NCBI GenBank assembly: GCA_014729775.1
Contig: WJJJ01000007.1
Location: forward strand, 30,302 to 94,301
Direction of reading: 5' to 3'
Source of the DNA: Candidatus Omnitrophota bacterium
GTDB taxonomy: Bacteria > Omnitrophota > Gorgyraeia > Duberdicusellales > 4484-171
DNA: 64,000 bases
The notes beneath the pieces are model-generated. The model was not told where the DNA came from. It searched no databases and worked only from the letters and a program-made list of their open reading frames with translations. Within the stretch, counting starts at the first letter, position 1; the number at the start of each line of letters is the position of its first letter. Both the position numbers and the translations under genes were made by a program. Below, one piece after another: positions 3,034-62,916 of this stretch.

Positions 3034-3052
3034 ACGGAAAGGAGAAACAGAG

Positions 3053-4771: not shown

Positions 4772-4811
4772 GAACAGAATGGCCAGGAGTTCGTGAAACC
4801 GGGAGCGGGAT

Positions 4812-7647
<2,836 letters not shown>

Positions 7648-7677
7648 GCGAACGAGGCACCGAAGAGGACAGCGGTA

Positions 7678-9444: not shown

Positions 9445-9476
9445 CCCGCGGCAGGCGTGAGTTTCCGGGGAAACGA

Positions 9477-11947: not shown

Positions 11948-11967
11948 TGCAAGCGAAGCGAGGCGGG

Positions 11968-12471
11968 ATGATGGAGCAGGAAAAAAAGAAAATTCGGTTC
12001 TCCGAGGTCAAACTGTTGGTCCTGGATTTCGACGGGGTGCTTACCGATAATAATGTCTATGTATCCGAGGACGGAAAAGAATCGGTGTGTTGTTCCCGGA
12101 GCGACGGTCTGGGAATAGAAATGGTGCAGAGCCGCGGGATACCCGTGGTGGTTTTATCCAAGGAAAAGAACAAGGTCGTAAAGGCCCGGTGCCGGAAGTT
12201 ACGCGTCCGGGTCACACAGGGGATCGACGAAAAACTCAGTGAACTAAAGCGAATTGCCGCGAACGCGAATGTTTCTCCCCGGCAAGTTTGTTATTTGGGT
12301 AACGACGTTAATGACCTGGAATGCGTAGAGTTTGCGGGGGCTGGCTGTGCGGTAAATGACGCCCATCCCGCGTTGCGCAATGCGGCCGATTATGTGACCA
12401 GGAACACCGGCGGGCACGGGGCTGTCAGAGAGATTTGTGAGTGTATCCTTGAAAGAGCAGATGAGCGGTAA
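11968..12471 (+). CDS. HAD-superfamily subfamily IIIA phosphatase (KdsC / Kdn-9-phosphate phosphatase family)
   Basis: VKLLVLDFDGVLTDNNVY...LGNDVNDLECVEFAGAGCAVNDA is the YrbI/KdsC family signature. The RBS gaggcggg precedes ATG 11968; the tracker began at GTG 11947. Confidence 0.8.
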   Translation: MMEQEKKKIRFSEVKLLVLDFDGVLTDNNVYVSEDGKESVCCSRSDGLGIEMVQSRGIPVVVLSKEKNKVVKARCRKLRVRVTQGIDEKLSELKRIAANANVSPRQVCYLGNDVNDLECVEFAGAGCAVNDAHPALRNAADYVTRNTGGHGAVREICECILERADER

Positions 12472-13906: not shown

Positions 13907-13907
13907 T

Positions 13908-14900
13908 ATGAAGAACGGAAGCGGACTTCGTACCCGGATTTCCGTGGTGACTCCGACTCTTTTCCGTCCGGAGGAGGTCATGGGGCTGCTGGAGAACTTG
14001 TGCCGGCAGATTCTTCTGCCGGAGGAAGTGATCATCGTTGACGGCGCGCCGCAGGAGGAAAAATCTACGGAAGCGCGCGTGGTCCGGGCGCATGCGCGGC
14101 TCCCCTTTCGCTGTCATTATATCCGTGCCGGCGGCGGAACCGCGGTACAGCGGAATATCGGCATCGATGCTGCATCCGGAAACTTCCTTGCATTCATCGA
14201 CGACGATGTCCGCCTCGATCGGGATTTCTTTGAACGGATAGTGGAAGTGTTCGCAGACGATGACGGATGCCGGATCGGCGGAATTGCGGGGTATATCACA
14301 AATCAGTATTTTGATCCGCAGAGGTCTCTCCGTTGGAAGTGGTACCGGAGATTGAGGTTGTTGTCAACATATGAGCCGGGACGGTATGATTTCAATACAG
14401 GGTATCCCGTAAATAGGTATATGTATCCTCCTCATTCCGGCGTACGGAAAATCGATTTCATGGGAGCAAATTGTGCGGTGTGGCGCAAGGCGGTGTTTTC
14501 GCAAGGGTTCCGGTTCGATGAGTTCTTTGCTGATTACGGGGTGCTTGAAGACGTTCATTTTGCGCTGCGGGCCGGGAGAAAATGGGATCTGTATGAATGC
14601 GGGCGTGCCCGGTGTGTGCATTTACGCTCGCCGGGAGGACGGGTGAATTCCGGTCAAATGAATTATAAAACCGCCGTGAATTACCGGTACGTATTCGTTG
14701 ATGCCGTGCCTCGTCGTACCTGGAGGCAGGAGTGTGCCTTTTGGAGAATGCAGATTTTTGATTTGTGCCGACTGGCATACGTTGCGCTGCGTTCCGGGAA
14801 TCCGGCTGACTGGCATGCGGTCGGTGGAAAATGCGCAGGGATCAGGGACGCGGTCGGCGTAAGACCGCCGCCCCGGGGACCGGGGGAATGGCGCCGATGA
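13908..14900 (+). CDS. Family 2 glycosyltransferase
   Basis: RISVVTPTLFRPEEVMGLLENLCRQILLPEEVIIVDGAP...FIDDDV has GT2 motifs. Alternative in-frame ATGs lie at 13878 and 13893. Confidence 0.8.
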   Translation: MKNGSGLRTRISVVTPTLFRPEEVMGLLENLCRQILLPEEVIIVDGAPQEEKSTEARVVRAHARLPFRCHYIRAGGGTAVQRNIGIDAASGNFLAFIDDDVRLDRDFFERIVEVFADDDGCRIGGIAGYITNQYFDPQRSLRWKWYRRLRLLSTYEPGRYDFNTGYPVNRYMYPPHSGVRKIDFMGANCAVWRKAVFSQGFRFDEFFADYGVLEDVHFALRAGRKWDLYECGRARCVHLRSPGGRVNSGQMNYKTAVNYRYVFVDAVPRRTWRQECAFWRMQIFDLCRLAYVALRSGNPADWHAVGGKCAGIRDAVGVRPPPRGPGEWRR

Positions 14901-15667
14901 CAATTTTTGAGTGGGGGTATCTTTTTGGCGCACCGTTTTTATTGCCGTTGCACCGGACGGTGCGAAAATTGCTGCGGGAGGTGACGGCACAGTATCCGTA
15001 CCGTCCGGAGGTGCTTGATGTGGGAGGGAGACAGTCTCCCTATACGATCGGGATCCCGGCAGACATTACTATTACCGATCTTGCCCGGTACAGCGCATTG
15101 CAACACCGGCTTCGGTTGGGACTGACTCCGGAGCTCATCAATAGGATACGGAGGCGACGGAGCAACGTGCGGCGTATTTTTTTCGACGACATGACCTGCT
15201 CGTCGATTCCGGACCGCGTATATGACGGGGTTGTTGCCGTCGAGGTGCTTGAGCATGTGGGGGACGGCGAAGCATTCGTCAACGAAGTGTGCCGGGTATT
15301 GAAGCCCGGCGGGATGTTCCTCATGACGACGCCCAATGCCGAATACCTGACAAGAACCGGGGGGAAGGCGGGAATGAATCCTGATGATAAACGGGTGTAT
15401 ACACGTATGGAATTACGCATGCTCCTCTCTCCGGGGTTTGAAAAGATCAGGATCGTTCCGGTCATCAATAAAAAGAGCCGTTGGCATTCGTGGGGGCTGC
15501 GCTCGTGGTCTTTGCGTCATCCGGCCGTAACCCTCATGAGCGCGCTGGGAAATTTTTTGAATTTTATCGGATCTTCCTCTACCCGACACTGCATCCGTGT
15601 CGAGGACGCAGGGCATTTGGCCGTGATTGCGAAAAAACGTATCGAAAAAGAATGCGACTTGCGGTAA
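14897..15667 (+). CDS. Class I SAM-dependent methyltransferase
   Basis: ATGA overlap with the upstream gene. VLDVGGRQSPY (motif I)...VEVLEHVGDGEAFVNEVCRVLKPGGMFLMTTPN is typical of the Methyltransf_11/23 family. Confidence 0.8.
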   Translation: MTIFEWGYLFGAPFLLPLHRTVRKLLREVTAQYPYRPEVLDVGGRQSPYTIGIPADITITDLARYSALQHRLRLGLTPELINRIRRRRSNVRRIFFDDMTCSSIPDRVYDGVVAVEVLEHVGDGEAFVNEVCRVLKPGGMFLMTTPNAEYLTRTGGKAGMNPDDKRVYTRMELRMLLSPGFEKIRIVPVINKKSRWHSWGLRSWSLRHPAVTLMSALGNFLNFIGSSSTRHCIRVEDAGHLAVIAKKRIEKECDLR

Positions 15668-16812
15668 TTTCATACAAAACGTGTTGGATCAGCCCGCAGT
15701 CTCCTACCGGGTATGCGACCGACGGAGGGTTCCCTCTGCAAATGCAGGCGTTGGCACAGCTGTTCTCGGCAACCGAGGTTCTGGTTCCTTGTTCCGCCCG
15801 TCCGCCTGGTGCCGGAGAAATGCCGCTGAGCGGCAAAGCTCTGTCGGTAACTCCGCTTACAAGGCCGCCCGGCCGCGGCGGCGTGCGAAAAGGGTTATTG
15901 CTATACTGGCTGGTGCGCAACAGCGTCCGGCTGGTCCGGGCATTGCGCGCTGCCGATGCGGTCCATACCCCGGTGCCCGGAGATATCCCTGCAGCAGGAA
16001 TGATCATGGCTTTTCTCTTGCGTAAGCGGCTGTTCGTAAGGTACTGCGGGAATTGGTTCGTTCAGCGGACCTGGGCGGAGAAAATGATCAAGAAAGTAAT
16101 GGAGCGCACCGCGGGGGGGATTCGGGTGATGCTGGCAACCGGAGCCGGTGTGTATCCTCCGTCCGCAAACCGAGCGATACAATGGATTTTTGCGAGTACC
16201 CTCACTGAAAGAGAACTTCGGCAGGTGGGGCAACCCCGGGTGTATCCGCAGGACGGGGTCCGGCTGATCATCGTTGGGCGTCAGGAAACCACAAAAGGAA
16301 CCGACGTCCTGATCAGGAGCGTTCCGTTGCTCAAGCAGATCTATTCGCAAGTGTGCGTTGAAGTGGTAGGTGACGGCGCGGCGCTGGGTGACTTTCAGCA
16401 ATTGGCGCGGGAACTCTCTCTTGAGTCGGAGGTGCGGTTCCACGGACGGGTTGATCACGCAGGGGTACTCGCGCTGTTATCGCGGGCGACGGTGTTTTGT
16501 TGCCCGACTGTTTCGGAAGGGTTTCCCAAAAGTGTTCATGAGGCATTGGCCTGCGGTCTGCCGGTAGTCGCGACCAGGGTGGGCGCGTTGCCGTATCTGA
16601 TCGGACGCGGCAACTGCGGGGTGTTGATCGAACGGGCAGTTCCAGAAGAAGTTACGGCGGCAGTCCAGACAATCCTTGCCGATGAACAGCAATATCAGGA
16701 AATGTCAGCGCGTGCGGTGCGGACCGCTTCCGCATATTCCCTCGAGCGGTGGCGGGATCGTATCCGGGAGAGTTTAACCCAGGCCTGGGGGGCACTGAGC
16801 AAAACGGAATGA
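15652..16812 (+). CDS. Family 4 (GT-B) glycosyltransferase
   Basis: C-terminal CPTVSEGFPKSVHEALACGLPVVATRVGALP is the GT4 EX7E region. Internal ATG at 15652. Confidence 0.85.
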   Translation: MRLAVISYKTCWISPQSPTGYATDGGFPLQMQALAQLFSATEVLVPCSARPPGAGEMPLSGKALSVTPLTRPPGRGGVRKGLLLYWLVRNSVRLVRALRAADAVHTPVPGDIPAAGMIMAFLLRKRLFVRYCGNWFVQRTWAEKMIKKVMERTAGGIRVMLATGAGVYPPSANRAIQWIFASTLTERELRQVGQPRVYPQDGVRLIIVGRQETTKGTDVLIRSVPLLKQIYSQVCVEVVGDGAALGDFQQLARELSLESEVRFHGRVDHAGVLALLSRATVFCCPTVSEGFPKSVHEALACGLPVVATRVGALPYLIGRGNCGVLIERAVPEEVTAAVQTILADEQQYQEMSARAVRTASAYSLERWRDRIRESLTQAWGALSKTE

Positions 16813-17963
16813 ATATGCAGCAGGATCTGCGGGGAATAAAAATCGATTTTCTGTCCGGGACACTGGAGCGGGGCGGTGCGGAACGGCAGTTGTGGTATAT
16901 GACGCGAGTGTGCGTTCAAGCGAAGATGCGGGTGCGGGTCCTGACGTTGAACCGGGGTGGTCCCTATGAGAGGATGCTCCGGGATGAAGGGGTCCCGGTG
17001 CTTTGGGTCGGGCAACCTCGGTCGCGGTTTCATCGGTTGTGGTCGATTATCCGGCAGACCCGTGCACACCGGCCGCATTGTATCCACAGTGCACATTTTT
17101 ACTCGAACTTGTATGCGGTGTGTGCGGCCCGGCTGTGCGGTGCTGCGGATATTGGCGCAATCCGGACCGATGTGGTGCACGAAGTCTCAACAATGCCGTT
17201 TTTAGGCCGGGCCGGCGTTCATCTGCCGCGATACCTGGTGGCGAATTCCGCTCAGGCGATCGAAACGTTGCGGGCCCGCGGGTTAAGAAAAAGATCTCTA
17301 TTCCTGTTGGAGAATGGGGTCGATACCGAGAAGTTTTCGCCGGCTGAACCGAATGATGACGATCCCCGGGCGCAGACCGAAATTTGTTTCGTGTGCGCAG
17401 GGTCCTGTGCGTCACAGAAACGGATTGATCTGTTCCTGTCCGCGCTTACACAAGTACGGAAGTCAGGATACCCGCGCGTACGCGGGATCGTGGCCGGCGA
17501 CGGTCCGTTGAGAGGAGTGCTTCAGCGGCAGGCCCGGGAACTGGGGTTAGGCGAAGATGCGGTGCAGTTCCTCGGTGAAGTCGGTGATATCCAGGAGGTG
17601 TACCGCAAGGCGGACGTGTGTGTATTGACGTCCGATTATGAAGGGATGCCGAATGTGGTGTTGGAAGCGATGGCCTGCGGGTTACCGGTCGTTGCGACCG
17701 CGGTCGGCGCGGTGCCGGATTTGCTGACGGATTCAGTGAACGGCTACGTAGTTGAGCGGGGAAACGTGACGATGCTGGCGGATCGTCTACGACGGCTGGT
17801 CCAAGACCCACGGCTTTGCCGGGAGATGGGGCAAAGGGCTCGTTCTTCGGTGAAAACCCGTTTTTCTCTCGCGGCGCTCAGCGCACGTGCGATCTCGTTG
17901 TATACGAGTATTCTCGCAAGAGAAGGCTCCCGGGGCAGAAGCTGGCCGGCGTTACGCCGGTGA
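16809..17963 (+). CDS. Family 4 (GT-B) glycosyltransferase
   Basis: LTSDYEGMPNVVLEAMACGLPVVATAVGAVPDLL is the GT4 signature. ATGA overlap with the upstream gene. Confidence 0.85.
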   Translation: MNMQQDLRGIKIDFLSGTLERGGAERQLWYMTRVCVQAKMRVRVLTLNRGGPYERMLRDEGVPVLWVGQPRSRFHRLWSIIRQTRAHRPHCIHSAHFYSNLYAVCAARLCGAADIGAIRTDVVHEVSTMPFLGRAGVHLPRYLVANSAQAIETLRARGLRKRSLFLLENGVDTEKFSPAEPNDDDPRAQTEICFVCAGSCASQKRIDLFLSALTQVRKSGYPRVRGIVAGDGPLRGVLQRQARELGLGEDAVQFLGEVGDIQEVYRKADVCVLTSDYEGMPNVVLEAMACGLPVVATAVGAVPDLLTDSVNGYVVERGNVTMLADRLRRLVQDPRLCREMGQRARSSVKTRFSLAALSARAISLYTSILAREGSRGRSWPALRR

Positions 17964-17975
17964 GGAGGTGAACCT

Positions 17976-19370
17976 ATGCGTTTTCAGATAGAGAATATCG
18001 GAATTACTCCGCGGCCGACGTTGGCTTTTTTCCTCGTCCACATTGGGTTGGGATTGATGTTTGTTCTTGGGGGGCTGCCTGCTGCCGCCGCTGTCCATTC
18101 CCTTATTGTCCTTTTGCTGGGAGTTATGTGTGCCCTAAAAGGACGGGATGTGTGGGTTGCCTGTATCATAAGCTATATTATGGGTGCGGAGGTGCTTTGG
18201 CGGATGGGGGGCGGGGGGATCGTCTGGGAAATGGCAAAATACGGCGTGACGCTTATTTTGACGATCGCTCTCCTGATTAAGCCTTCCCGCATTCGATCGC
18301 CGGCCGCGCTCGTGACATATTTTCTCTTGTTACTGCCCGCGATTCTCGATGCTCCGGCGGAGTCATTTACCCAATGGAAAGAAGCGGTGAGCTTTAACCT
18401 TTCCGGTCCATTGTCGCTGCTGCTGTGCGGAATATTCTTTTCAAAAATGGAGTTTGAAACAGACGATCTCAAACGGTTTTTTTCATGGTTCCTGGCACCG
18501 GTCGCCGGGGTTGCTGCGGTTTCGGCCTTCTCTCTTACGCAGGCGGAAAATATTCAGTGGGGAAGAGCTTCGGTATACGCGGCCAGTGCGGGATTTGGAC
18601 CGAACCAGGTATCCAGTGTGTTGGGGACCGGCGCGTTTTTTTGTGTGATTGCCTATGTACTGTATACCCGGAAGCCGTTGATTAAAACGATTTTATTGGT
18701 ATCCGGAATATGGTTCATTACCCAGGCCTTCTTGACGTTTTCGAGGGGAGGGGTTATTCAGTCCATCCTGGCGGTCGGCCTGTTTTTTGTTTATTTAATA
18801 CGGGCCCGGGGCGGACGCTATTTTATTCCGATCACGATGTTAGCAGTTTCCCTGGTGTGTTTTGGGATATATTACCTGATCCCAAAATTGGATGAATTCA
18901 CTCAAGGGGGGCTTACGCAACGATACCAGGAACGTGAACAGGTCGGCGGCGTGGAATTACTTGATACTACCGGACGGTGGGAACTCGTCCAGGCCGATTT
19001 GCAGATTTTCCTTACGCATCCAATGGGGAGCGGGGTCGGGCGCTTGCGCTCGCTGCATAAAAAGATCCTGGGAACTCGTAAAGCGGCGCATACCGAATGG
19101 ACCAGGATGCTGGCCGAGCACGGCTGGCCTGGATTACTGGCGATTATCGCGCTCGCGGTGTGGGCATGGAAGCAGTATCGGGCAACCCGGGATCCGTTTT
19201 TGAAAGCCGTTAAAGCGTCATTCTTCTTCTCTGCGGCGGTGTTTATGGGGCATGCGGCGATGCGCCTGGTCCTTCCCGGTGTGCTCATTGGATTTCTAGG
19301 CGGGTGCAGGCGCGCGGAGGACGGTGTGCATGCTGAAAGAATATCGGAAGGGAGAACCCGCCGTTTATGA
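17976..19370 (+). CDS. O-antigen ligase / polymerase (Wzy_C) family integral membrane protein
   Basis: About 10-12 TM segments with a large periplasmic loop carrying the Wzy_C-type motif (LTFSRGGVIQS...HPMGSGVG). A strong RBS (aggagg) is present. Confidence 0.75.
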   Translation: MRFQIENIGITPRPTLAFFLVHIGLGLMFVLGGLPAAAAVHSLIVLLLGVMCALKGRDVWVACIISYIMGAEVLWRMGGGGIVWEMAKYGVTLILTIALLIKPSRIRSPAALVTYFLLLLPAILDAPAESFTQWKEAVSFNLSGPLSLLLCGIFFSKMEFETDDLKRFFSWFLAPVAGVAAVSAFSLTQAENIQWGRASVYAASAGFGPNQVSSVLGTGAFFCVIAYVLYTRKPLIKTILLVSGIWFITQAFLTFSRGGVIQSILAVGLFFVYLIRARGGRYFIPITMLAVSLVCFGIYYLIPKLDEFTQGGLTQRYQEREQVGGVELLDTTGRWELVQADLQIFLTHPMGSGVGRLRSLHKKILGTRKAAHTEWTRMLAEHGWPGLLAIIALAVWAWKQYRATRDPFLKAVKASFFFSAAVFMGHAAMRLVLPGVLIGFLGGCRRAEDGVHAERISEGRTRRL

Positions 19371-20359
19371 AGATTCTCACGGTGACCAGTGAATGGCCTA
19401 CCCCGACATCTCCGGGGCGCGTGCCGTTTCTCGTCCAGCGGATCAAGTACTTGCGGCGGGAAGGGGTGGAAACAAAAGTGTTCTTCTTCCGCGGAAATAA
19501 AAACCCGTTGAATTACCTTGCCGCTCATCGATGTTTGCGGCGGAAGTATGATCTCAGGCAGTTCGATGTGGTCCATGCTCATTTTGGACAGAGCGGGCTG
19601 GTCACGCTGCCGTCTCCGCGGCCGGTGGTGGTGACTTTTTACGGCAGTGACCTGCAGGGAATCGTCACACCGTCCGGAAGCTATTCATGGAAAGGAATCG
19701 CGAGCCGGGAATTGGGACGGATGATCGCCAGACAGGCGACGAAAGTAGTGGTCGTGGCGCGAAGGCTGGCTGAATATCTGCCTTCGGAAGTATCCCCGGA
19801 GGTCATCCCCTGCGGCGTGGATCGTGAATTGTTTTTTCCCGTTCCTCGGACAGAGGCGCGGGCCCGCTTAGGATGGTCTCAAGAAAAGCGCGTAGTACTA
19901 TTTGCGGCAGATCCGCGGCGGCCAGTCAAACGGTATAAGCTGGCCCAGGAGTCGATTTCCCGTGTGCCGGCGCTCGGCGAGGTAGAGCTGTGTGTGTTGG
20001 CTGACGTGCCGCATGAGCAGGTTCCGTGGTATATGAATGCGAGCGATGCCCTTGTGCTTACTTCGCGGCATGAAGGGTCTCCTACCGTTGTGCGTGAAGC
20101 TCTGGCGTGCGATCTGCCCGTGGTTTCGGTTGATGTCGGCGACGTGCGGGAATCTGTTCACGGGATCGACGGGTGCCATGTTTGTGAAGAGGCCTCTCCC
20201 GGATGCATTGCGCGTGCGTTATCCCGCGTTCTTGGCCCGCGACGGCGGGTGGACGGTCGGCCCGCGGCCGCAGTGTATGACGAAAAACGCTTGGCGCAGA
20301 AACTCATTTCGCTCTACCGTGCGGCGCAGAGTGTAACGAGGAGGCCTGAGGACGCATGA
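19367..20359 (+). CDS. Family 4 (GT-B) glycosyltransferase
   Basis: LTSRHEGSPTVVREALACDLPVVSVDVGDV is the GT4 signature. ATGA overlap. Confidence 0.85.
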   Translation: MKILTVTSEWPTPTSPGRVPFLVQRIKYLRREGVETKVFFFRGNKNPLNYLAAHRCLRRKYDLRQFDVVHAHFGQSGLVTLPSPRPVVVTFYGSDLQGIVTPSGSYSWKGIASRELGRMIARQATKVVVVARRLAEYLPSEVSPEVIPCGVDRELFFPVPRTEARARLGWSQEKRVVLFAADPRRPVKRYKLAQESISRVPALGEVELCVLADVPHEQVPWYMNASDALVLTSRHEGSPTVVREALACDLPVVSVDVGDVRESVHGIDGCHVCEEASPGCIARALSRVLGPRRRVDGRPAAAVYDEKRLAQKLISLYRAAQSVTRRPEDA

Positions 20360-21408
20360 ATCAGCCGTTTGTATCGGTGGTGATGCCTTGTGCAAATGAA
20401 ATAGATTTTATTTCTAAGTCTCTCGGTTCGCTGTTGCGGACCGAGTATCCGATGCACCGGTTGGAAATATTAGTTGTGCTCGACAGCTACAGCGACGACG
20501 GGACAAGAGCCGTGGTAAAGCAGCTGCACGAAGTTCATTCGCAAATACGACTGGTTGAAAATCCGTATCGGATTGTTCCTGTTGCGATGAACATCGGGAT
20601 TCGTGCGGCAAAAGGAGAAATTATCGTGCGGGTCGATGCTCATACTGAGTATCCGCCGGAGTATATTTGTAAATGCGTGGAATATCTTGAGAAGACCGAT
20701 GCCTGGTGTGTGGGCGGGCCGTTTTATAACGTTCCCGCCACGAATACATTGATGGCCAAGGTGATCTCCGCGGTGCTCTCTTGTCCGTTCCTTGTCGCCG
20801 ACGCCCGGTTCCGGACGAAGCAGAAACCGATGTATGTGGAGACGGTTCCCTACGGCGCATTTCGTAGGGAAGTGTTTGATCGTGTAGGATTTTACGACGA
20901 GCGCCTGACCCGGCATCAGGATTTTGAATTATGCCGCAGGATTTCACGGGCCGGAGGTAAGATTTTTCTTACACCGGAAATAAAAAATTATTATTATCCC
21001 CGCAAGACCCTCCGCGCGTTTCTGCGTATGGCGGTCCAAAACGGGTATTGGGATGCGGTGAGCACCGGGTTGTGTCCCCACTCCTTTGCCTGGCGGCACT
21101 TTGTGCCCGGGCCGTTTTTTTTGGGAACGGTTGCGGGAATCGGATGTGTGGTGATTGGCGCAGCCACCGGGGACCCGGTGTGGTTCCTCGGCGCGGCACC
21201 GGTAGCTCTTTACTTCGGGTTGGCGTGCTTTTTTTCCGCTTCTCTTTGCAGAATGCATCGATTCGGCGTTGCGGCGTTTTCCCTGATCCCGTTCGTGTGT
21301 TTTCTCTTTCATTTTTGGTTTGGTTTCGGACTGATCAAAGGGCTGGCGCAGTGGCTTTGTATCCGATGGCCGCGGGAACGCAGTGAAAGGGGAACGAATA
21401 CAGATTGA
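20356..21408 (+). CDS. Family 2 glycosyltransferase with C-terminal transmembrane anchor (possibly polyprenyl-phosphate sugar transferase, GtrB/DPM1-like)
   Basis: GT2 N-terminus (FVSVVMPCANEIDFI...VVLDSYSDDGT...RVDAHTEYP) followed by 3-4 C-terminal TM helices. ATGA overlap. Confidence 0.75.
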   Translation: MNQPFVSVVMPCANEIDFISKSLGSLLRTEYPMHRLEILVVLDSYSDDGTRAVVKQLHEVHSQIRLVENPYRIVPVAMNIGIRAAKGEIIVRVDAHTEYPPEYICKCVEYLEKTDAWCVGGPFYNVPATNTLMAKVISAVLSCPFLVADARFRTKQKPMYVETVPYGAFRREVFDRVGFYDERLTRHQDFELCRRISRAGGKIFLTPEIKNYYYPRKTLRAFLRMAVQNGYWDAVSTGLCPHSFAWRHFVPGPFFLGTVAGIGCVVIGAATGDPVWFLGAAPVALYFGLACFFSASLCRMHRFGVAAFSLIPFVCFLFHFWFGFGLIKGLAQWLCIRWPRERSERGTNTD

Positions 21409-22031
21409 TGAGTGATGTGCAGAGAGAATATCGTCTCAAGCGACCGGTTGATTTTTTTCTGGGGGTCCTCGCAGTTTTTCTCTCTCTGCCCCTATGGGGG
21501 TTGTGTGCCTACGCGGTGCTGGCGGAGGACGGCCGCCCGGTATTTTACGGACAATATCGGATTGGGCGAGCCGGGCGAAGGTTTCGGGTATTTAAATTCC
21601 GGTCGATGATCAAAAATGCCGAAGCGCTGACCGGGCCTGTATTCGCTCAGGAGAATGATTCCCGGTTGACCAAGACCGGCCAGGTCATGCGGGCGACCGC
21701 GCTGGATGAACTTCCGCAAATATTGAGTATTCTCAAAGGAGATATGAGTTTTGTCGGACCTCGGCCGGAGCGTCCCGAATTCGTGGCGACGTTTGCGGCC
21801 GAAGTGAGAAATTATATGATGCGGCATGCCGTCCGTCCCGGGTTAACGGGAGTTGCTCAGATTTTCGGGCAATACGATACCCCACCGCGGCATAAACTCC
21901 GTTATGATCTGTTCTACATAAGGAGGCAGAGTTTACTGTTCGATTTGGTTCTCATTACTATTTCTTTGTATCTGAGCATATGCGGAAAATGGAGGTTTCG
22001 CCGGCGAAAGTTTCCTCGGCGGTATCGATAA
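21408..22031 (+). CDS. Polyprenyl-phosphate sugar phosphotransferase (small bacterial sugar transferase, PglC/WbaP-C-like)
   Basis: One N-terminal TM then FKFRSM...DELPQILSILKGDMSFVGPRPERPEFV, the Bac_transf signature of initiating phosphoglycosyltransferases. Confidence 0.85.
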   Translation: MSDVQREYRLKRPVDFFLGVLAVFLSLPLWGLCAYAVLAEDGRPVFYGQYRIGRAGRRFRVFKFRSMIKNAEALTGPVFAQENDSRLTKTGQVMRATALDELPQILSILKGDMSFVGPRPERPEFVATFAAEVRNYMMRHAVRPGLTGVAQIFGQYDTPPRHKLRYDLFYIRRQSLLFDLVLITISLYLSICGKWRFRRRKFPRRYR

Positions 22032-22088
22032 AAGGTGTTGCGTTGTTTCATCTCTCCCCGTAGAATAATATCGGGGGGAGAAAGGGTT

Positions 22089-23219
22089 ATGAAAGAAATG
22101 TCAATTGTCATCGTCGGTGCCGGTCCGATCGGGTGCTATGTGGGGCAGCTTTTGACCCGGCAGGGATACCGTGTCCGAATTATTGAGGAGCACAATGAGA
22201 TCGGGAAACCGGTGCATTGTGCGGGATTAATCGGGAAAAAGGTGCTGGATGAGATGCGAATCCCTTTCCCCAGGGAGAGCGTACTCAACCGTATTGACGG
22301 GGGGATTGTGCATCTCAATGGGGATTGTTTCCGTCTCCGGCGAGAAGAAGTTGCCTATGTGATCGACCGGGAAAAATTCGATAAAGCTATGGGGGCGGGA
22401 TTGAATGTGACCTATGGAACCCGGTGTGTCGGGATTGAGGAGAACGGAAGAGGGTATATTCTTGAAACTGACAGAGGAGAAATAAAAGCGGACGCGATCA
22501 TCGGTGCTGACGGCGCGCATTCTGCGGTCCGGGAATACGTGCATCAGAAAACCCCGGTCGAATATCTGAAAGGGGTACAGTTCCGGATGGAGCAGGCTCC
22601 TTCTGATATCAATATGGTGGAGATCTTTCTCAAAAAGCCTTATTTCTTCTGGAGCATCCCTGAAAATGAGAAAATCGTCCGGGTCGGGGTTCTTTCCCGG
22701 AATCCGTACTATGATCTTCTCGATTTTATCAAGGAAAGAGGTTTTCAGGGACGGGTGATCGAGAAATTCGCGGGACTTGTGCCCTTTTCGCATTTTTCCA
22801 CGTTTTCCAAAGGAAACGTATTTTTGGTGGGGGACAGCGCCGCACAAATAAAACCGTTGTCTTACGGCGGTGTCTATCTGGGGATGCGCGCTGCGGAACT
22901 TCTCGCGGATTGCCTGTGCAGTGAAAGGCATCAAGAATATTCTTCCCTGTGGAAGCGCCGTTTCGGCAGGGAACTCGCGATTACACTGAAGGCCCGCCGT
23001 TATTTTCATACGCTGAGCGAAGAAGATTTAGAACGAATATTTTTCTTCGTGAAAGATAATACTTCTCTTATAGAGGAAAAAGCCGATTTTGAAAATCACG
23101 CGGTGATGGTTTGGGAGTTCTTAAAACGGCCGAACGTATCAAAAGAAATATTGAGCATATTGCTGAAACTCGTGAAAAACAATTTTTTTCAGAATGAAGT
23201 CAATTACGCTACAAAGTAG
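22089..23219 (+). CDS. Geranylgeranyl reductase family FAD-dependent oxidoreductase
   Basis: MSIVIVGAGPIGCYVGQ...IIEEHNEIGKPVHCAGLIG is the GGR-type dinucleotide-binding fold with the PxCGG-like motif. ATG at 22089 (the tracker began upstream). Confidence 0.8.
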   Translation: MKEMSIVIVGAGPIGCYVGQLLTRQGYRVRIIEEHNEIGKPVHCAGLIGKKVLDEMRIPFPRESVLNRIDGGIVHLNGDCFRLRREEVAYVIDREKFDKAMGAGLNVTYGTRCVGIEENGRGYILETDRGEIKADAIIGADGAHSAVREYVHQKTPVEYLKGVQFRMEQAPSDINMVEIFLKKPYFFWSIPENEKIVRVGVLSRNPYYDLLDFIKERGFQGRVIEKFAGLVPFSHFSTFSKGNVFLVGDSAAQIKPLSYGGVYLGMRAAELLADCLCSERHQEYSSLWKRRFGRELAITLKARRYFHTLSEEDLERIFFFVKDNTSLIEEKADFENHAVMVWEFLKRPNVSKEILSILLKLVKNNFFQNEVNYATK

Positions 23220-24498
23220 AATTATTATTCTCTTTGTGATTTTTACCATTTTCACGATCGGCATTTTCGTCGTGATTCAGCTGTCGCATGAGTTGAATTC
23301 GGTTAACCAGGAGATTGAGTACCGGGCCCGCGCGAATTCAAATGAAGTAGAGGAGGAATTCCGGGAGATTCTTCTCCGGTTCCCGGACCGCGCGGAGGCG
23401 ATCGAAGTGATGGGTGAAAAACTCCAGGCGCTGAAAACCTCCGGGTTTCTCGAGCGTGCCTATGTGCTTGATTCTTCGGGTGAAATTGTATTCTCTACCG
23501 AGGGCTGGTTTGGAGGACAAAAGGGGAGTTTTACCGATTTTAATATACTGCAAAAATTTTTCGCGGAGGATTCGAGACGGAGAGAGGCTGTTACCGATAA
23601 AAAGAGCCGGTTACTCTCGGTGTATATCCCTCTTGACCAGGAAGATGAGTTGCGTTATTTGGTGCGGTTGTTTTTCCCTCTGGGCGATATTTGGACGGCG
23701 ATGCGGCAGGTCTATCAGCCGGCGTTTGCGGTCGGGCTGTTGTTTATCGTATTGAATGTATTGTTCGGGATATCTCTTTCCCGGGCGATTATCGGTCCGA
23801 TTAAGGTGGTAAGCGAGGCGGCAAAAAAAATCGCCGCGGGAAATCTTGATTTACGCGTACGAATGTCCACGAACGACGAGCTGGAGGAGTTGGCCAATAC
23901 GTTTAATGTGATGACAGTTGAATTAGACAAGATGAAACGACAAGCTGAGGATGCCAATCCTCTGACAAAACTTCCAGGGAACGTATTGATTCGCGAAGAG
24001 ATCGAGATGCGAATTCAAAACAAGGAAAAATTCGCGGTCGTATATTGCGACTTGGATAATTTCAAAGCGTTCAATGACAAATACGGAATCGGTAAAGGAG
24101 ATGAGGCAATCAAGCTTACCGGGGAGATTTTCAAACGGGCCGTAGAGCACAAAGGGGAATCAGATGATTTTATCGGACATGAAGGCGGGGACGATTTTTT
24201 ATTGGTATGCCGGCTTTCCCGGGTGGAAGAGGTGGCCAATTACATAATTGAAGAATTCGATGTGCGCATACGGGATTTATACGACAAAGAAGACAAAGCG
24301 CAGGGCTATATTATCGCAACGGGACGGGACGGGGTAAAGCGGCAGTTTTCCATTATGACCATTTCTCTGGCGGGAATTACGAACGGCCGCCGGGAGCTGC
24401 ACAGCTACGGTGAAATCACCAATATTGCGGCCGAAGTGAAAAAGAAAGCAAAAAACCAGGAGCGCAGCTGTTTGGTGTTTGACGAACGGACCGGGTAG
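23194..24498 (+). CDS. Membrane-bound HAMP-GGDEF domain protein (diguanylate-cyclase family; signature motif is GGDDF)
   Basis: Two TM segments flank a ~150-aa periplasmic region, then HAMP (IGPIKVVSEAAKKIAAGNLDLRV). The GGDEF domain has LTKLPGN, YCDLDNFKAFND, and GGDDF at 24184-24198 in place of GG(D/E)EF. Confidence 0.8.
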   Translation: MKSITLQSRIIILFVIFTIFTIGIFVVIQLSHELNSVNQEIEYRARANSNEVEEEFREILLRFPDRAEAIEVMGEKLQALKTSGFLERAYVLDSSGEIVFSTEGWFGGQKGSFTDFNILQKFFAEDSRRREAVTDKKSRLLSVYIPLDQEDELRYLVRLFFPLGDIWTAMRQVYQPAFAVGLLFIVLNVLFGISLSRAIIGPIKVVSEAAKKIAAGNLDLRVRMSTNDELEELANTFNVMTVELDKMKRQAEDANPLTKLPGNVLIREEIEMRIQNKEKFAVVYCDLDNFKAFNDKYGIGKGDEAIKLTGEIFKRAVEHKGESDDFIGHEGGDDFLLVCRLSRVEEVANYIIEEFDVRIRDLYDKEDKAQGYIIATGRDGVKRQFSIMTISLAGITNGRRELHSYGEITNIAAEVKKKAKNQERSCLVFDERTG

Positions 24499-24508
24499 TG
24501 TATTAGTA

Positions 24509-24835: not shown

Positions 24836-24922
24836 CTCAATTAAAGGATACCATACCCTGCCCCCCGATGTCAATAAAATCGCCGATGGCGAAAAACCAT
24901 TGAAAATAAAGGAGAATACGTT

Positions 24923-26761
24923 ATGATGCGCCGAGTTTTCCAGCGCTCCGTGCTTACTCTGATCGTGGTTGTGGTGACAATGGGGACGTTTCTTTTTATT
25001 TATAATACCTATATGTTGGATCATTCTCTCTTTAATCTGAAGGTTTCGCTCAAACATCTGGCTACCGTGGAAAATCCCAGGGAAATGGAGGAAATCCGGC
25101 AAATCCTGGACGTTGTATTGGTCCAGGAAATTGCCCGGGATTCGTCCGACTTTTTAGCGGCGGCAAAACTGGAATTTTCCGGTCAGATTGCGGGGCGGAT
25201 GAAGCAATATCAGCAGATTCAGGATATCCGGTTTCTCTTGGGGGATATCGTGGAACAACGGGAGGAGCGACGCAATCCTTTTTTTGCTCTGCTGGACAGC
25301 ATTTTGATGAAACTCTTCCCCCATGTGCGGCAGGACCAGCCGCAGAAGATACGCGCAATGATCAGCGAAATGGAAAAGAAAATTCCCCTTTACGACGGAA
25401 TTAAGCTGCAGGCGCATTTAATCCGTCTGGCACAGATGAATATGCGTCTTCGGGAGTGGCCTGTCGCATTGGAGTTGTTGCAGCGGGCGGCTTCAGCCGG
25501 GCCGGAAAGTAAGGAGGGCCGTATCGCGAAGCTATATGTGGGAATCGTATATAAATTTACCGGAGAGTATGAGCGTGCCCGGAAAGTATTCAGCGAGCTT
25601 CGTTCGGTGTTAGAGAAAGATCTGAAAAAATACGCAATATATCAGGAAGCCCAAATCTTGTATGCAGAAGGGCGAAAGGGACAGGCCTTGCAGAAGTTAG
25701 AAGAGTTCTTTGATGATTCGCCCGGAGAAGAATTCCATCAATTCTCGCAGTTCCGGGCGGCATACGAGTATCTATACACCATACACGACCACCAGAAGGC
25801 GTATCAGTCGTTTCAAAAACTGCATGAATATGCACCCCAAAGCAAGTATGACGAATATGCGGTTACCTATCTCTATCCCCGGAATGCGGAGCCGTATGTA
25901 GAAGAAGGAGCAATTTTGTTGGATGAAGGGTATAATCTGGTGCGGTTGGCACATGAAAAAGAGGCACGCGAACGATATCAGGGTGCATTGAACCTGTTCC
26001 ACCAGGCGGTAAAAATTTGTCCGCCGGAAACCAATGATACCGTGGTGTCGATTATCGCCCGCAATTATCGGGAAACCGGATTCAAACTGGTCGAACAAGG
26101 ATATTTGTCTCAACAGGCGAACCAGAAAGCGGAAGCGACGTTGTTTTTTTCCGATGCGATCGAGAAATTTGATCTTGCAACGCAATTCTTCGACCGCGAA
26201 GCGTTAGCATACAGCGGGAAAGGACTGACGTTATTGTTTCTCGGGAAGCCGCAGGAAGCGCTGGATGCCGCGCGGGAAGCCGTCCGTCTCAATCCCGAGA
26301 ATGAAGAAACACTGGCTCATTTGGGGTATGTGTATTATCGGGTGGGAATGCTTGACGAAGCGATCGATGTGTATCGAAAATCGATGTTGGTATTACGAGA
26401 TTCTCCGCTATTGCATTATAATCTGGGGACAATGTTGGTTAAAAAAGGCAACCTTGTGGGAGCGATCGAAAATTTCAAACAGGCGATTGATGCTGATCCG
26501 AAATATTCGTACGCATATAATAACCTAGGATACATTTTGTGGGTAAAGGGCGCCTATCAGGAGGCGCAGACAAATTTGGAGCGAGCCGTGAGTTTGAGCC
26601 CCGATTATGTGGATGCCAGGTATAATCTCGGAGTCTTGTTTTTTACCATCGGAAAGTACGAACAGGCCCAGGAGCAGTTCCAAGTGATCAACCGTTTGCA
26701 TCCGGGGTTCAAAAAAAGCCAACAGTTTCTGAGAGCGATTGAAAAGAGAGCTGCACAATAA
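24923..26761 (+). CDS. TPR-repeat protein with N-terminal membrane anchor
   Basis: RBS aaggag 7 nt before ATG. An N-terminal TM (LTLIVVVVTMGTFLFIY) is followed by multiple TPR-like repeats (YNLGTMLVKKGNLVGAIENFKQAIDADPKYSYAYNNLGYI...). Confidence 0.8.
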   Translation: MMRRVFQRSVLTLIVVVVTMGTFLFIYNTYMLDHSLFNLKVSLKHLATVENPREMEEIRQILDVVLVQEIARDSSDFLAAAKLEFSGQIAGRMKQYQQIQDIRFLLGDIVEQREERRNPFFALLDSILMKLFPHVRQDQPQKIRAMISEMEKKIPLYDGIKLQAHLIRLAQMNMRLREWPVALELLQRAASAGPESKEGRIAKLYVGIVYKFTGEYERARKVFSELRSVLEKDLKKYAIYQEAQILYAEGRKGQALQKLEEFFDDSPGEEFHQFSQFRAAYEYLYTIHDHQKAYQSFQKLHEYAPQSKYDEYAVTYLYPRNAEPYVEEGAILLDEGYNLVRLAHEKEARERYQGALNLFHQAVKICPPETNDTVVSIIARNYRETGFKLVEQGYLSQQANQKAEATLFFSDAIEKFDLATQFFDREALAYSGKGLTLLFLGKPQEALDAAREAVRLNPENEETLAHLGYVYYRVGMLDEAIDVYRKSMLVLRDSPLLHYNLGTMLVKKGNLVGAIENFKQAIDADPKYSYAYNNLGYILWVKGAYQEAQTNLERAVSLSPDYVDARYNLGVLFFTIGKYEQAQEQFQVINRLHPGFKKSQQFLRAIEKRAAQ

Positions 26762-26762
26762 A

Positions 26763-26791
26763 TTGACAGCAGCATGAAAATATACTAAACT
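26763..26791 (+). promoter_or_regulatory. Putative sigma70-type promoter (TTGACA-17-TAAACT) giving a near-leaderless PilZ mRNA
   Basis: TTGACA at 26763-26768 and TAAACT at 26786-26791 with a 17-nt spacer. The predicted TSS is ~3-4 nt before ATG 26802. Confidence 0.45.
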
Positions 26792-26801
26792 TATCGTTGA
26801 G

Positions 26802-27377
26802 ATGCTGAAATCATTCAAGAAACATTTCTTCCGCAAGAAAGGCCGTGACCGGAGAAAATATGTCCGGTTGCGTGCGCATCATTTGCTGAAGTATAAAATT
26901 CTTTCTCCCCAAGAACATCTGACCTTTGTCCGCGATATCAGCGGCGGCGGACTCCTCTTTTTCTCGAGAGAGGATATTCCTGTGGGGAGTGTAGTGGAAC
27001 TTGCCGTTAATTTTCCCGCATCTCCCTTGCCGATTGAAGGGGTAGCCAAGGTGATCCGGACCCGGCATCTTAAAAAGATGGGCGGCTACGAGATCGCAGT
27101 CGAATTTCTCGAGCTGGACGAAGAAAACCGGGAACGGATTCAACGGCAAATAGCGTGTGTATATGAAAAAAAAGAACAAAGAAAGGGGGAGCGAATGGGC
27201 AGAGTAGCGAAAATATTCCTGGGACTCGCGATTGTCGGCGCGCTTTTCGGGACGGCAACGCGATTCTTTGATGTGAGTGTCCCGGTTGCCCCGCTCAGTT
27301 GGGTTATGTTGACCAATATGTTTTTGCTGTTCTCTATCGCGGTCACTTTGTTGGCAATTGCTCGGAAGATCAAATAG
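26802..27377 (+). CDS. PilZ-domain c-di-GMP receptor with C-terminal two-TM anchor
   Basis: Canonical PilZ motifs RKYVRLR (RxxxR) and DISGGG (DxSxGG), followed by two hydrophobic helices at the C-terminus. Confidence 0.8.
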   Translation: MLKSFKKHFFRKKGRDRRKYVRLRAHHLLKYKILSPQEHLTFVRDISGGGLLFFSREDIPVGSVVELAVNFPASPLPIEGVAKVIRTRHLKKMGGYEIAVEFLELDEENRERIQRQIACVYEKKEQRKGERMGRVAKIFLGLAIVGALFGTATRFFDVSVPVAPLSWVMLTNMFLLFSIAVTLLAIARKIK

Positions 27378-27418
27378 GTTCTTTTGAGGATATACGGGGC
27401 AGACGGAATTTTATTCGT

Positions 27419-28747
27419 ATGGGCAGGTGGATTACCACAGGAATATGCATGGTTGCGTGTGCTGTCCTTCCCGCAGCGGGATGGGGGGAAGTGACGAGGG
27501 GAGACCTTATCGACGGATATCTTAAATATTATCAGCTGGAAGAAAAAGAACGGGAAGAAAAGGAACGGCAGGAAGAGCTCCGGCGGCAAAAGGAAGAGGC
27601 TTTGATGCGGGAGCGGGAAGCCCGGCGGGATAAAAGCGAGCAACGTGCGAGAAAAATGAAAAAAGTGCTTGAGAGAGTAAAAGAGGATCTTTTGTTTGTC
27701 GCGGAACTCGAGAGTATTTATAGCGATAACGTATTTAAAACCAGCGAAGACGAAGAATCAGATTTCGTCACTTCTCTCACCCTGGGATTGAGCTACGAAC
27801 CAGAAATTGCATGGAGGAAGGGGCATACTTCGGTAAAATTCGATCTGGAAGGCGGTCCGAACATCACCATTACGGATAATGACGAGCTGAACGCGAACCG
27901 GTTCCTTGCCGCCGGTGCGGTCCAGCATGTCCGGGGGAAATACGGTGTCGGTATTGAAGGAGGCGCGGAACGGGATTTCTCTACGGCGAGCGATTTTACC
28001 CTTACGGGAGAAAAAAAGCTCGTGGAATTCTGGCGGTATCGGTACGGAGTGGAGCTGTTCGCCGACTGGGCATATCTCCCTTCCTCGCTTCAGTACACGC
28101 ACAAAACAACCGAACACGACGGAGAGTTTTCTGCGGCGGATTTAGACGAGGACGTCATTGAATTGACGACGAAAGTGAACGTTTTCCCCAAGACCGGAAT
28201 TAAATTTGACTATCAATATGGTTCTGACGAATATCCGAACCGCGGAAATAAAGACGGTACGTATCATTCGTTTCAACTCGGGCTGTCCGGAAAGATTTCG
28301 CCGAAGATCAAAGGGGATATCCTTGGAGGCATCAAGCAGAGAGAAATCGATGACGGCAGCGATGTCGAAGAAACTACGACGACGGTGGACCTTGTGTATG
28401 ATATCTCCGAACATCTGAGCGCCGCCTTCGAAGCAAGCCGGGATGTCTCCGCGACGGCGGTCATCGGAGAATCTTGGAGCAAAGACTGGGAGATCATTCT
28501 GGGGCTGGAATACCGGCCGCCGTTCAACCGAAGGTTAACCATGTTCGCCGGAGGGGAATATAAGAGTTCAGAGTATTCTTCCGCCCGGGAAGACGAATAT
28601 CTTGAGCTGTCTTTGCGGTCACGGCTCGCGTTGAATCAATGGCTTTCCTGTGAAGGTGCATATACGTTCGAAGACAGGACCTCGAACACTGCCCTGGCCG
28701 AATACACGCAAAACGAAATTACGCTGTCACTCACCGCGGAGTTTTAA
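27419..28747 (+). CDS. Putative outer-membrane beta-barrel protein with N-terminal charged coiled-coil region
   Basis: Signal peptide (MGRWITTGICMVACAVLPAAG), a K/E/R-rich low-complexity stretch, then alternating amphipathic beta-strand pattern. The C-terminus ...ITLSLTAEF ends in Phe, the OMP signature. Confidence 0.6.
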   Translation: MGRWITTGICMVACAVLPAAGWGEVTRGDLIDGYLKYYQLEEKEREEKERQEELRRQKEEALMREREARRDKSEQRARKMKKVLERVKEDLLFVAELESIYSDNVFKTSEDEESDFVTSLTLGLSYEPEIAWRKGHTSVKFDLEGGPNITITDNDELNANRFLAAGAVQHVRGKYGVGIEGGAERDFSTASDFTLTGEKKLVEFWRYRYGVELFADWAYLPSSLQYTHKTTEHDGEFSAADLDEDVIELTTKVNVFPKTGIKFDYQYGSDEYPNRGNKDGTYHSFQLGLSGKISPKIKGDILGGIKQREIDDGSDVEETTTTVDLVYDISEHLSAAFEASRDVSATAVIGESWSKDWEIILGLEYRPPFNRRLTMFAGGEYKSSEYSSAREDEYLELSLRSRLALNQWLSCEGAYTFEDRTSNTALAEYTQNEITLSLTAEF

Positions 28748-30088: not shown

Positions 30089-30094
30089 GGAACG

Positions 30095-46364: not shown

Positions 46365-46383
46365 CAAGAAAAGGGAGGAAAAT

Positions 46384-52929: not shown

Positions 52930-52958
52930 GTGAACTTTTACAACGAAAAGGAGGGAAT

Positions 52959-62873: not shown

Positions 62874-62881
62874 TACCCGCC

Positions 62882-62910: not shown

Positions 62911-62916
62911 CGTAAC

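Follow-up and report, generated by a model that had tools for sequence, protein, structure and literature searches.

A geranylgeranyl reductase-family flavoprotein conserved in the exopolysaccharide loci of Omnitrophota suggests glycan assembly on a partly saturated lipid carrier

Why would the exopolysaccharide (EPS) locus of a bacterium encode a flavoprotein of the geranylgeranyl reductase (GGR) family? The question is raised by a stretch of 64,000 nucleotides from a Candidatus Omnitrophota bacterium (contig WJJJ01000007.1, positions 30,302 to 94,301; the whole stretch is called the window here). Three co-directional open reading frames (ORFs) lie in a row within window positions 20356-23219, in the middle of a polysaccharide locus of approximately 33 kb (1180-34202). 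A previous, sequence-only reading of this DNA had described them as genes for a membrane glycosyltransferase of family GT2, a priming phosphoglycosyltransferase (PGT) and a GGR-type flavoprotein, and the row was found as described:

20356..21408, + strand: membrane GT2 glycosyltransferase (GT-A domain plus four C-terminal helices; similar to PcManGT and hyaluronan synthases; PF00535)
21405..22031, + strand: small monotopic PGT of the PglC type, the priming enzyme acting on polyprenyl phosphate (PF02397, PglC match)
22089..23219, + strand: GGR-family flavoprotein binding flavin adenine dinucleotide (FAD), a predicted prenyl-chain reductase (TIGR02032, motifs and fold; the mechanical ORF begins at GTG 22035)

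The best-supported reading of the data presented below is that the flavoprotein reduces the lipid carrier of the EPS pathway, because it belongs to the GGR family, because its gene is linked to EPS genes in a conserved manner, and because a second class of priming transferase accompanies its homologues in Atribacterota. Archaea and mycobacteria use partly saturated lipid carriers, and these results suggest that Omnitrophota likewise build their EPS on one.

Family membership of the flavoprotein

Clade placement was based on the cut-offs of curated hidden Markov models (HMMs). The flavoprotein scores 170.3 bits against TIGR02032 'geranylgeranyl reductase family' (GG-red-SF; cut-off 158.8), over profile positions 3-295 of 297, and its distant relatives score 152-213 bits. 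A single strong sequence match was obtained in the PDB, to the lipid GGR of Thermoplasma (3oz2, E 3.8e-20); a monooxygenase comes second at 1e-6. With the AlphaFold model of the protein (predicted local distance difference test score, pLDDT, 84.6), Foldseek returned 3oz2 (E 4.6e-24, template modelling (TM) score 0.75) and the Sulfolobus GGR structures 3atq, 4opt and 4opl (TM 0.77-0.78). Other flavoproteins of the p-hydroxybenzoate hydroxylase (PHBH) fold, comprising monooxygenases/hydroxylases, tetracycline destructases and halogenases, gave TM scores of 0.55-0.70.

The motifs given for the family in a 2024 review of GGR paralogues are GxGxxG, the catalytic Cys47, PxxYxWxFP, RxxFD and LxGD, of which the full PxxYxWxFP is not strictly kept among the paralogues (PMC10821996). 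Two alignments were inspected, one of 21 Omnitrophota sequences and one of 22 sequences spanning also Atribacterota, Aerophobetes and archaeal relatives, and the GGR motifs are invariant or nearly so in both. The N-terminal GxGxxG reads G10-A-G12-P-I-G15 and is invariant across the clade. Cys44 (PVHCAG) aligns with the cysteine of 3oz2 (PVRCGE) and is invariant in both alignments. RxxFD is represented by R94-E-K-F97-D98 and LxGD by L246-V-G248-D249, with R94, D98, G248 and D249 invariant clade-wide. The cavity motif is seen as P184-Y-F186-F-W188-S-I190-P191 (FxWxIP), in which the tryptophan and proline are kept and the two substitutions, Tyr to Phe and Phe to Ile, are conservative. No signal peptide or transmembrane segment was found in the protein, and its Rossmann strand starts from residue 5.

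The cut-offs for characterised equivalogs were not reached. Scores were 64.5 bits against 780 and 56 against 580 for the lipid GGR models NF041160 and NF041080, 56.3 against 343.3 for BchP/ChlP (TIGR02023) and 38 against 700 for MenJ (NF045655); the distant relatives likewise reach no characterised equivalog. Judged by sequence and modelled fold, therefore, the flavoprotein is a true member of the GGR family, as the sequence-only reading had proposed, the TIGR02032 score, the invariant motifs with their catalytic cysteine and the best sequence and fold matches (3oz2 and 3atq/4opt) all agreeing. Since neither ChlP/BchP, nor lipid GGR, nor MenJ is reached, the HMM cut-offs place it in a separate, uncharacterised sub-clade. 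Assignment to a clade of halogenase- or monooxygenase-like enzymes, named beforehand as the competing outcome, is contradicted by the HMM cut-off, the motifs, and the sequence and fold matches.

The best-matching enzymes, the digeranylgeranylglycerophospholipid reductases of Thermoplasma acidophilum (3oz2) and Sulfolobus acidocaldarius (3atq/4opt), have in common with the window protein GxGxxG, the catalytic cysteine, RxxFD, LxGD and an aromatic-x-W-x-hydrophobic-P motif. They differ from it in that identity in structural alignments is 15-22%, that the equivalog HMMs score far below their cut-offs, and that the window protein has FxWxIP where they have YxWxFP. In contrast to the hosts of the archaeal lipid GGRs, the window host gave no indication of ether lipids. 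Caution is in order with the label 'digeranylgeranylglycerophospholipid reductase', which some source annotations give to these genes.

Conservation of the reductase gene in EPS loci of Omnitrophota

The closest homologues of the flavoprotein (45-61% identity) are almost all from Omnitrophota. Further homologues occur in Atribacterota and Aerophobetes (35-44%) and in archaea of the Methanofastidiosa, Theionarchaea and Thermoplasmata types (30-40%), the latter being its nearest relatives outside the bacteria. The ORFs of 83 loci were probed with the window's own proteins, and representative loci were checked against precomputed Pfam annotation. Linkage was counted in 36 non-redundant Omnitrophota-type loci, with PGT, outer-membrane protein (OMP), Wza, Wzc and Wzy_C as the core EPS genes and a limit of 10 kb.

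The reductase gene is linked to EPS genes in most of this set: 30 of the 36 loci have one or more core EPS genes no further than 10 kb from it, and the remaining six are contigs truncated on one side or still have glycosyltransferase (GT), TPR or GGDEF genes of the module. In 15 of the 36, a PGT gene is found no more than 3 kb away. The window and seven further loci (L006, L007, L010, L011, L020, L041 and L085) have the two genes closer still: the PGT gene either stops under 200 nt before the reductase gene or overlaps it by 4-8 nt.

At least four gene orders were observed. The order PGT-reductase-GGDDF-TPR-PilZ-OMP-Wza-Wzc-WzyC, in which GGDDF denotes the cyclase gene described below, is that of the window and about 17 loci. 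Six loci have PilZ-OMP-Wza-Wzc-WzyC-x-reductase-GT4, with 4-nt overlaps on both sides in L084; about six have TPR-reductase with a convergent GGDDF gene, or Wza-reductase; and L085 has GT2-PGT-reductase-methyltransferase without an export module. A rough estimate puts the chance of a gene lying within 10 kb of a 30 kb locus, in a genome of 1.3-1.8 Mb, at about 3%; with several independent retentions, accidental linkage is therefore very unlikely. The arrangement is far more than chance would give, and it recurs across the phylum although the proteins are just 45-61% identical. The placement of the reductase in the EPS operon, which the sequence-only reading had pointed out for the window, is thus conserved and not incidental, and the best explanation makes the reductase a fixed part of the Wzy-type EPS machinery in this phylum.

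This linkage also bears on the possibility that the protein, like MenJ or the menaquinone reductase of Archaeoglobus, reduces the side chain of a quinone (menaquinone or ubiquinone) and is situated in the EPS locus for historical reasons. Quinone reduction by GGR-family enzymes does occur in mycobacteria and Archaeoglobus (PMC10821996), and UbiA-type or menaquinone genes are present in some Omnitrophota classes (PMC10066038). However, no quinone biosynthesis gene was seen among the neighbours in at least 36 loci, the EPS linkage is kept through several rearrangements, the Atribacterota homologues stand beside glycan-priming and sugar-activation genes, and the MenJ score given above is very far from the cut-off. 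A quinone substrate is accordingly considered quite improbable.

The sugar chemistry encoded around the reductase gene varies, from sulfate, NeuB and fucose in the window to aminotransferase, carbamoyltransferase, radical SAM, Asn synthase, PglF-like dehydratases and methyltransferases elsewhere. The reductase is constant across genomes while these sugar-modifying neighbours change, and the contrast fits a substrate common to all of the polymers. It argues against a non-isoprenoid pathway substrate, such as an unsaturated acyl or enol-type sugar substituent, on which a GGR scaffold would have taken up new chemistry. Such a substrate would be compatible with the absence of a matching characterised equivalog, with the altered cavity motif and with the richness of EPS loci in unusual tailoring enzymes. 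Yet the catalytic motifs are fully kept, and the characterised GGR-family enzymes covered in PMC10821996 and PMC12004948 all reduce C=C bonds derived from isoprenoids, a sterol C-24 reductase included. This alternative is held to be unlikely, if a little less so than a quinone.

Two observations on individual loci are added here. In L085, three tandem B12-binding radical-SAM genes occupy the glycosyltransferase block just 5′ of GT2-PGT-reductase (4352-8602), and further radical-SAM, PqqD and Mur-ligase-like genes lie downstream. Eight loci labelled as uncultured Planctomycetia/Planctomycetales (L009, L021, L022, L024, L026, L027, L041 and L042) contain the Omnitrophota-type reductase (46-55% identity) and EPS module; either these metagenome-assembled genomes carry coarse or mistaken labels, or related lineages of the Planctomycetes-Verrucomicrobia-Chlamydiae (PVC) group have the module too.

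Homologues in Atribacterota and Aerophobetes

In Atribacterota, the reductase homologue is followed directly by a gene for a sugar-1-phosphate nucleotidyltransferase (seven loci) or for a phosphoglucomutase/phosphomannomutase (PGM/PMM; five loci). A transferase of family PF00953 (WecA/MraY/AglH class) is encoded directly upstream of it, or within 7 kb, in seven loci. The PF00953 class also uses polyprenyl phosphate and is unrelated to PglC. Two non-homologous classes of priming enzyme that use polyprenyl phosphate thus accompany one reductase sub-clade in two phyla, which indicates that the shared substrate is the lipid carrier.

The same nearness to priming transferases favours the carrier over a different isoprenoid lipid tied to the polymer, be it a prenyl-type anchor at the reducing end of the EPS or a membrane lipid of the export machinery, that does not recycle. 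The family evidence would serve such a lipid equally well, the nearest relatives outside the bacteria are archaeal, and the conserved second Wzy_C/ligase-like gene of the loci could pass the polymer to a final acceptor. Set against this, no gene resembling geranylgeranylglyceryl phosphate (GGGP) or digeranylgeranylglyceryl phosphate (DGGGP) synthase, and no prenyltransferase gene, was seen in the loci, and we know of no isoprenoid anchor for polymers of the Wzy type. A lipid of this kind is unlikely, although it is the least improbable of the alternatives to the carrier considered here.

Two placements were noted among L060 (8935-13053), L072 (8299-11152), L033, L036, L037, L045, L055, L063 and L069: in Atribacterota the homologue lies between a PF00953 transferase and PGM/PMM or a sugar-1-phosphate nucleotidyltransferase, and on Aerophobetes-type contigs it is situated 3′ of an HD-domain gene.

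Proposed role in carrier-lipid saturation

On balance, it is judged somewhat probable that the polyprenyl-phosphate carrier of the EPS pathway is the substrate, and that the reductase saturates its omega and E isoprene units. Substrate, regiochemistry, electron donor and any physiological benefit are inferences, and the mechanism proposed is as follows. The gene at 22089-23219 would encode a cytoplasmic, FAD-dependent prenyl-chain reductase, in which reduced FAD and the conserved Cys44 would hydrogenate C=C bonds of a polyprenyl (undecaprenyl-type) phosphate or diphosphate. If HVO_1799 and HepR, described next, are a guide, the targets would be the omega-terminal and E-configured units. The alpha unit would stay unsaturated (allylic), so that the carrier would remain a substrate for bacterial enzymes and the product would not be a true dolichol. 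The PglC-type PGT and then the membrane GT2 would start the repeat unit on that carrier, with the result that EPS would be made on a lipid saturated in part. A possible benefit is that the EPS carrier pool is held apart from the peptidoglycan pool, or that the lipid is stabilised.

Two characterised enzymes provide the analogy. The GGR HVO_1799 of Haloferax volcanii (Naparstek et al. 2012) is described as necessary for omega saturation of dolichyl phosphate, alpha saturation persisting in its absence (PMC10821996, PMC5088576). According to these accounts it belongs to the same family, with the same set of motifs, and saturates isoprene units of a lipid carrier for glycan assembly. It differs in being also the membrane-lipid GGR of its host and, as far as PMC5088576 and PMC10821996 say, in not being encoded in a glycosylation cluster, whereas the window flavoprotein is bacterial, falls in a separate sub-clade and has its gene inside a Wzy/Wza/Wzc EPS locus. 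The mycobacterial HepR (Mycolicibacterium; Abe et al. 2022) is described as a reductase of Z,E-mixed heptaprenyl diphosphate that acts on its omega and E units (PMC10821996), and the sugar carrier of M. smegmatis is a C35 octahydroheptaprenyl-P-mannose (PMC3229680). By that description HepR is likewise a bacterial GGR-family enzyme yielding a partly saturated sugar carrier; it differs in phylum, chain length and pathway, and no EPS export locus is reported for it in the portions of the cited literature that concern it.

Several points weigh against carrier-lipid reduction. No cis-prenyltransferase/UppS or other isoprenoid gene was found among the 25 commonest families of 129 unassigned flanking ORFs. 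The UbiA-type or menaquinone genes of some Omnitrophota classes mean that another prenylated substrate occurs in the phylum; an argument by elimination, by which these cells would have no long isoprenoid but the carrier, was rejected on that account. The global quinone survey yielded no statement specific to the phylum. The change of YxWxFP to FxWxIP may give the substrate pocket a different shape. The neighbours of the archaeal sub-clade members are uninformative, being housekeeping genes only (phosphoglycerate mutase, ZnuA, AAA ATPases), and archaeal neighbourhoods were dropped as a functional clue. Of 67 metagenome loci that have the GGDDF gene and enough flank, 24 lack a reductase gene nearby, L089 with its complete export module among them; there, the reductase is either placed elsewhere in the genome or dispensable. 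Finally, the support is genomic and comes from uncultured organisms.

The PGT and the membrane GT2

The 208-aa PGT matches PF02397 (Bac_transf) with an E value of 3e-56 over profile positions 1-171 of 179, PglC (8g1n) with 2.3e-28 over residues 11-189 (full length) and WbaP (8t53) with 6e-29; against TIGR03025 it gives a partial match of 243.7 bits. Its translation contains the Asp-Glu (DE) dyad (LDELPQ) and the PRP motif (GPRPE) of monotopic phosphoglycosyltransferases. With a Bac_transf domain, a length of about 200 aa and both motifs, it has the features of a PglC-like enzyme. Its start overlaps the stop of the GT2 gene (TTGATGA), so the two genes are probably translationally coupled.

The 350-aa GT2 (PF00535, E 1.6e-25) is modelled with a pLDDT of 94.3 as a GT-A domain followed by four long C-terminal helices (residues 219-335). 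Its best PDB sequence match is PcManGT (6yv7; E 2.6e-12, residues 3-209), and 6yv7 is also the top Foldseek match (TM 0.60), the highest TM scores (0.61-0.67) being those of hyaluronan synthases. By comparison, GtrB (5ekp) gives E 2.9e-4 over residues 6-109, ArnC gives 23.9 bits against a cut-off of 529, and neither GtrB nor dolichyl-phosphate mannose synthase (DPMS) was seen among the 50 Foldseek matches listed. The proposed likeness to GtrB/DPM1 therefore holds for general architecture (GT-A plus C-terminal helices), but in sequence and fold the protein is nearest to PcManGT and the hyaluronan synthases, the GtrB match extending over approximately 100 residues. With PcManGT it has in common a minimal cellulose-synthase-like membrane architecture; the two are 21% identical.

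In locus L004, a GT2 orthologue is fused to a Bac_transf PGT in a single protein (P0128, 533 aa; 3223-4824) encoded directly upstream of the reductase gene. The fusion favours action of the GT2 on the PGT product, that is, a second transfer step onto a sugar linked to undecaprenyl diphosphate (Und-PP-sugar). The simplest reading is that the GT2 is a membrane-embedded second-step transferase acting on the product of the PGT, and not a polyprenyl-phosphate monosaccharide synthase; it probably adds the second sugar. The pair thereby resembles the PglC/PglA-type couples of priming and second-step enzymes, in the PglC size of the PGT, in its DE dyad and PRP motif, and in the fusion in P0128.

Start of the reductase gene

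The mechanical ORF of the flavoprotein spans 22035-23219 (+; 394 aa). The gene most likely starts at ATG 22089, because a strong Shine-Dalgarno sequence, GGGGGGAGAAAGGG, precedes this codon and the N-termini of 20 homologues agree with it. A 57-nt gap therefore separates the PGT and reductase genes, and the statement that the reductase directly follows the priming transferase has to be withdrawn. Promoter and terminator scans of the gap yielded consensus matches no commoner than in shuffled sequences and marginal hairpins. With signals at the level of the shuffled controls, there is no basis for a separate transcription unit for the reductase gene. An RNA hairpin at 22043-22097 (+; TCTCTCCCC...GGGGGGAGA) can mask the Shine-Dalgarno sequence in front of the reductase gene; at -22 kcal/mol (z = -2.25 relative to shuffles) it is marginal.

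The HAMP-GGDDF cyclase

The gene that follows overlaps the reductase gene by 26 nt and encodes a HAMP-GGDEF-type protein. Its orthologues are of equal length (434 aa) and overlap the reductase gene by 4 nt. The 26-nt overlap on which the sequence-only reading had remarked is thus real in the window, but among the relatives overlap is frequent and not universal: it is seen in the window and in 16 of 36 loci, and other loci have the two genes as convergent neighbours. All 23 orthologues examined have HEGGDDF, which departs from the canonical [G/A/S]G[D/E]E[F/Y], and the Pfam GGDEF match of the window protein covers the first 94 of 161 profile positions, with a faint match to the Cas10 palm. A GGDDF enzyme of Geobacter, GSU1937, is reported to be active and to make cyclic GMP-AMP (cGAMP) and cyclic di-GMP (PMC8835794). 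HAMP-GGDDF orthologues were observed in L001-L041 and L086-L165.

Viewed from the cyclase gene, a reductase gene is adjacent in 43 of the 67 loci with enough flank, so that the pairing is common and not obligatory. The pairing and the overlaps could be expected if the flavoprotein were a redox-sensing partner of the cyclase, reporting redox state to a cyclic-dinucleotide switch that controls EPS, without modifying a lipid. This is regarded as very improbable. No GGDDF neighbour is present in L023, L025-27, L042, L078 and L085, nor beside the Atribacterota, Aerophobetes and archaeal homologues, and the full conservation of the catalytic cysteine and substrate-cavity residues argues for an enzyme.

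Layout of the polysaccharide locus

The other parts of the locus in the window are as follows.

1180..20359, + strand: variable part of the locus, 5′ of the three genes (Pfam scans; content differs among related loci)
23194..24498, + strand: membrane HAMP plus GGDEF-type cyclase with GGDDF motif, a probable cyclic-dinucleotide regulator of the locus (PF00672, PF00990)
24923..26761, + strand: TPR-repeat protein of the conserved export/regulation module (TPR models PrsT, PilW and Tgl; position kept in the loci)
26802..27377, + strand: PilZ-type protein, with a cyclic-di-GMP receptor domain (TIGR02266 partial; PF07238 PilZ in orthologues)
27299..28747, + strand: outer-membrane beta-barrel, BBP2_2/EpsL-like (TIGR03014/TIGR03016 partial; PF10082 in orthologues); the true start of this mechanical ORF is probably further downstream
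28748..30088, + strand: Wza-type polysaccharide export protein (TIGR03027, 206.3 bits against a cut-off of 180)
30095..31933, + strand: Wzc-type chain-length determinant/tyrosine autokinase (PF13807, PF02706; TIGR01007, 158.6 bits against a cut-off of 108)
31930..33231, + strand: second Wzy_C (O-antigen ligase/polymerase-like) membrane protein, the last conserved gene of the module (PF04932, E 5.6e-18; after Wzc in the loci)

Another TPR protein is encoded 3′ of the second Wzy_C gene and closes the downstream part of the locus. The variable part contains genes for an ABC exporter, ATP sulfurylase/adenosine 5′-phosphosulfate (APS) kinase (for synthesis of 3′-phosphoadenosine 5′-phosphosulfate, PAPS), GDP-mannose dehydratase, a GDP-fucose-synthase-like epimerase, a sulfotransferase, a CMP-sugar cytidylyltransferase, NeuB, a methyltransferase, several GT2 and GT4 transferases and Wzy. 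Within it, 3026-11947 (+) encodes the bifunctional ATP sulfurylase/APS kinase, a 588-aa protein with a sulfotransferase domain, the dehydratase, the epimerase, the cytidylyltransferase and NeuB. The predicted polymer is therefore sulfated, with fucose and a nonulosonic acid, which would be unusual for an uncultured bacterium of non-marine type.

No recognisable Wzx/MOP flippase was found in the window locus. A fused ABC_membrane and ABC_tran protein of 617 aa, with PglK/MsbA-like architecture, opens the locus (1180-3033, +), and a 489-aa protein without a Pfam family, for which a weak match to the BFO_1060 glycosyltransferase domain is the sole hit, is encoded at 12437-13906 (+). Either could be the flippase.

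The G+C content falls from approximately 0.55-0.59 in the glycosyltransferase block (14000-22000) to approximately 0.45-0.50 from the reductase gene through the export module (22000-34000), and the step near 22000, from about 0.55 to 0.48, coincides with the boundary of the variable and conserved parts of the locus. Foreign insertion of the reductase gene alone is not indicated by this drop, since the low-G+C stretch is the conserved export module of all relatives.

Outside the polysaccharide locus, the window contains housekeeping genes. These include V/A-type ATPase A and B subunits with an ATP-synt_VA_C domain (47475-50511, +), in a bacterial genome. Four sizeable ORFs are without a Pfam family at E <= 1e-5, namely 40630-42651 (+, 673 aa), 46249-46986 (+, 245 aa), 50719-53031 (-, 770 aa) and 62849-63601 (-, 250 aa). 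Nearly all ORFs of the window are on the plus strand, the 770-aa ORF being one of the few exceptions.

Novelty and meaning

Textbook accounts treat the glycan carriers of bacteria as fully unsaturated. They are likewise so treated in PMC5088576, where saturation is an archaeal and eukaryotic trait with the mycobacteria as the known exception. No paper that ties the GGR family to bacterial loci for EPS, O-antigen or capsule, or to Omnitrophota, came up in a literature search that left out most subscription journals. The sequence-only reading had held a GGR to be unexpected in a bacterial EPS operon; GGR action on a carrier lipid has a bacterial precedent in the mycobacterial HepR and C35 carrier (PMC10821996, PMC3229680). 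The proposed chemistry has precedents in both archaea and mycobacteria. The novelty lies in a distinct sub-clade that is fixed, throughout a candidate phylum, in an EPS locus of the Wzy/Wza/Wzc type and that has a parallel association in Atribacterota.

A wider proposal may be put forward tentatively, and is rather doubtful as a whole: that the surface glycans of Omnitrophota, and probably those of Atribacterota, are built on an omega-saturated polyprenyl-phosphate carrier of archaeal style, made by a reductase sub-clade held in common with archaea of the Methanofastidiosa type, which would imply inter-domain transfer, and that the reductase is a core part of the EPS system whose carrier pool is separate from that of peptidoglycan.

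If carrier-lipid reduction is true, carrier-lipid saturation would be extended to more of the bacterial tree, to Omnitrophota and to a second phylum with WecA/MraY-type transferases. The reductase would provide a concrete, clonable gene with which to ask how carrier chemistry affects priming, flipping and polymerisation, and whether carrier pools are kept apart between pathways. Many GGR paralogues discussed for archaea are uncharacterised (PMC10821996), and a hypothesis of function would be at hand for one of them.

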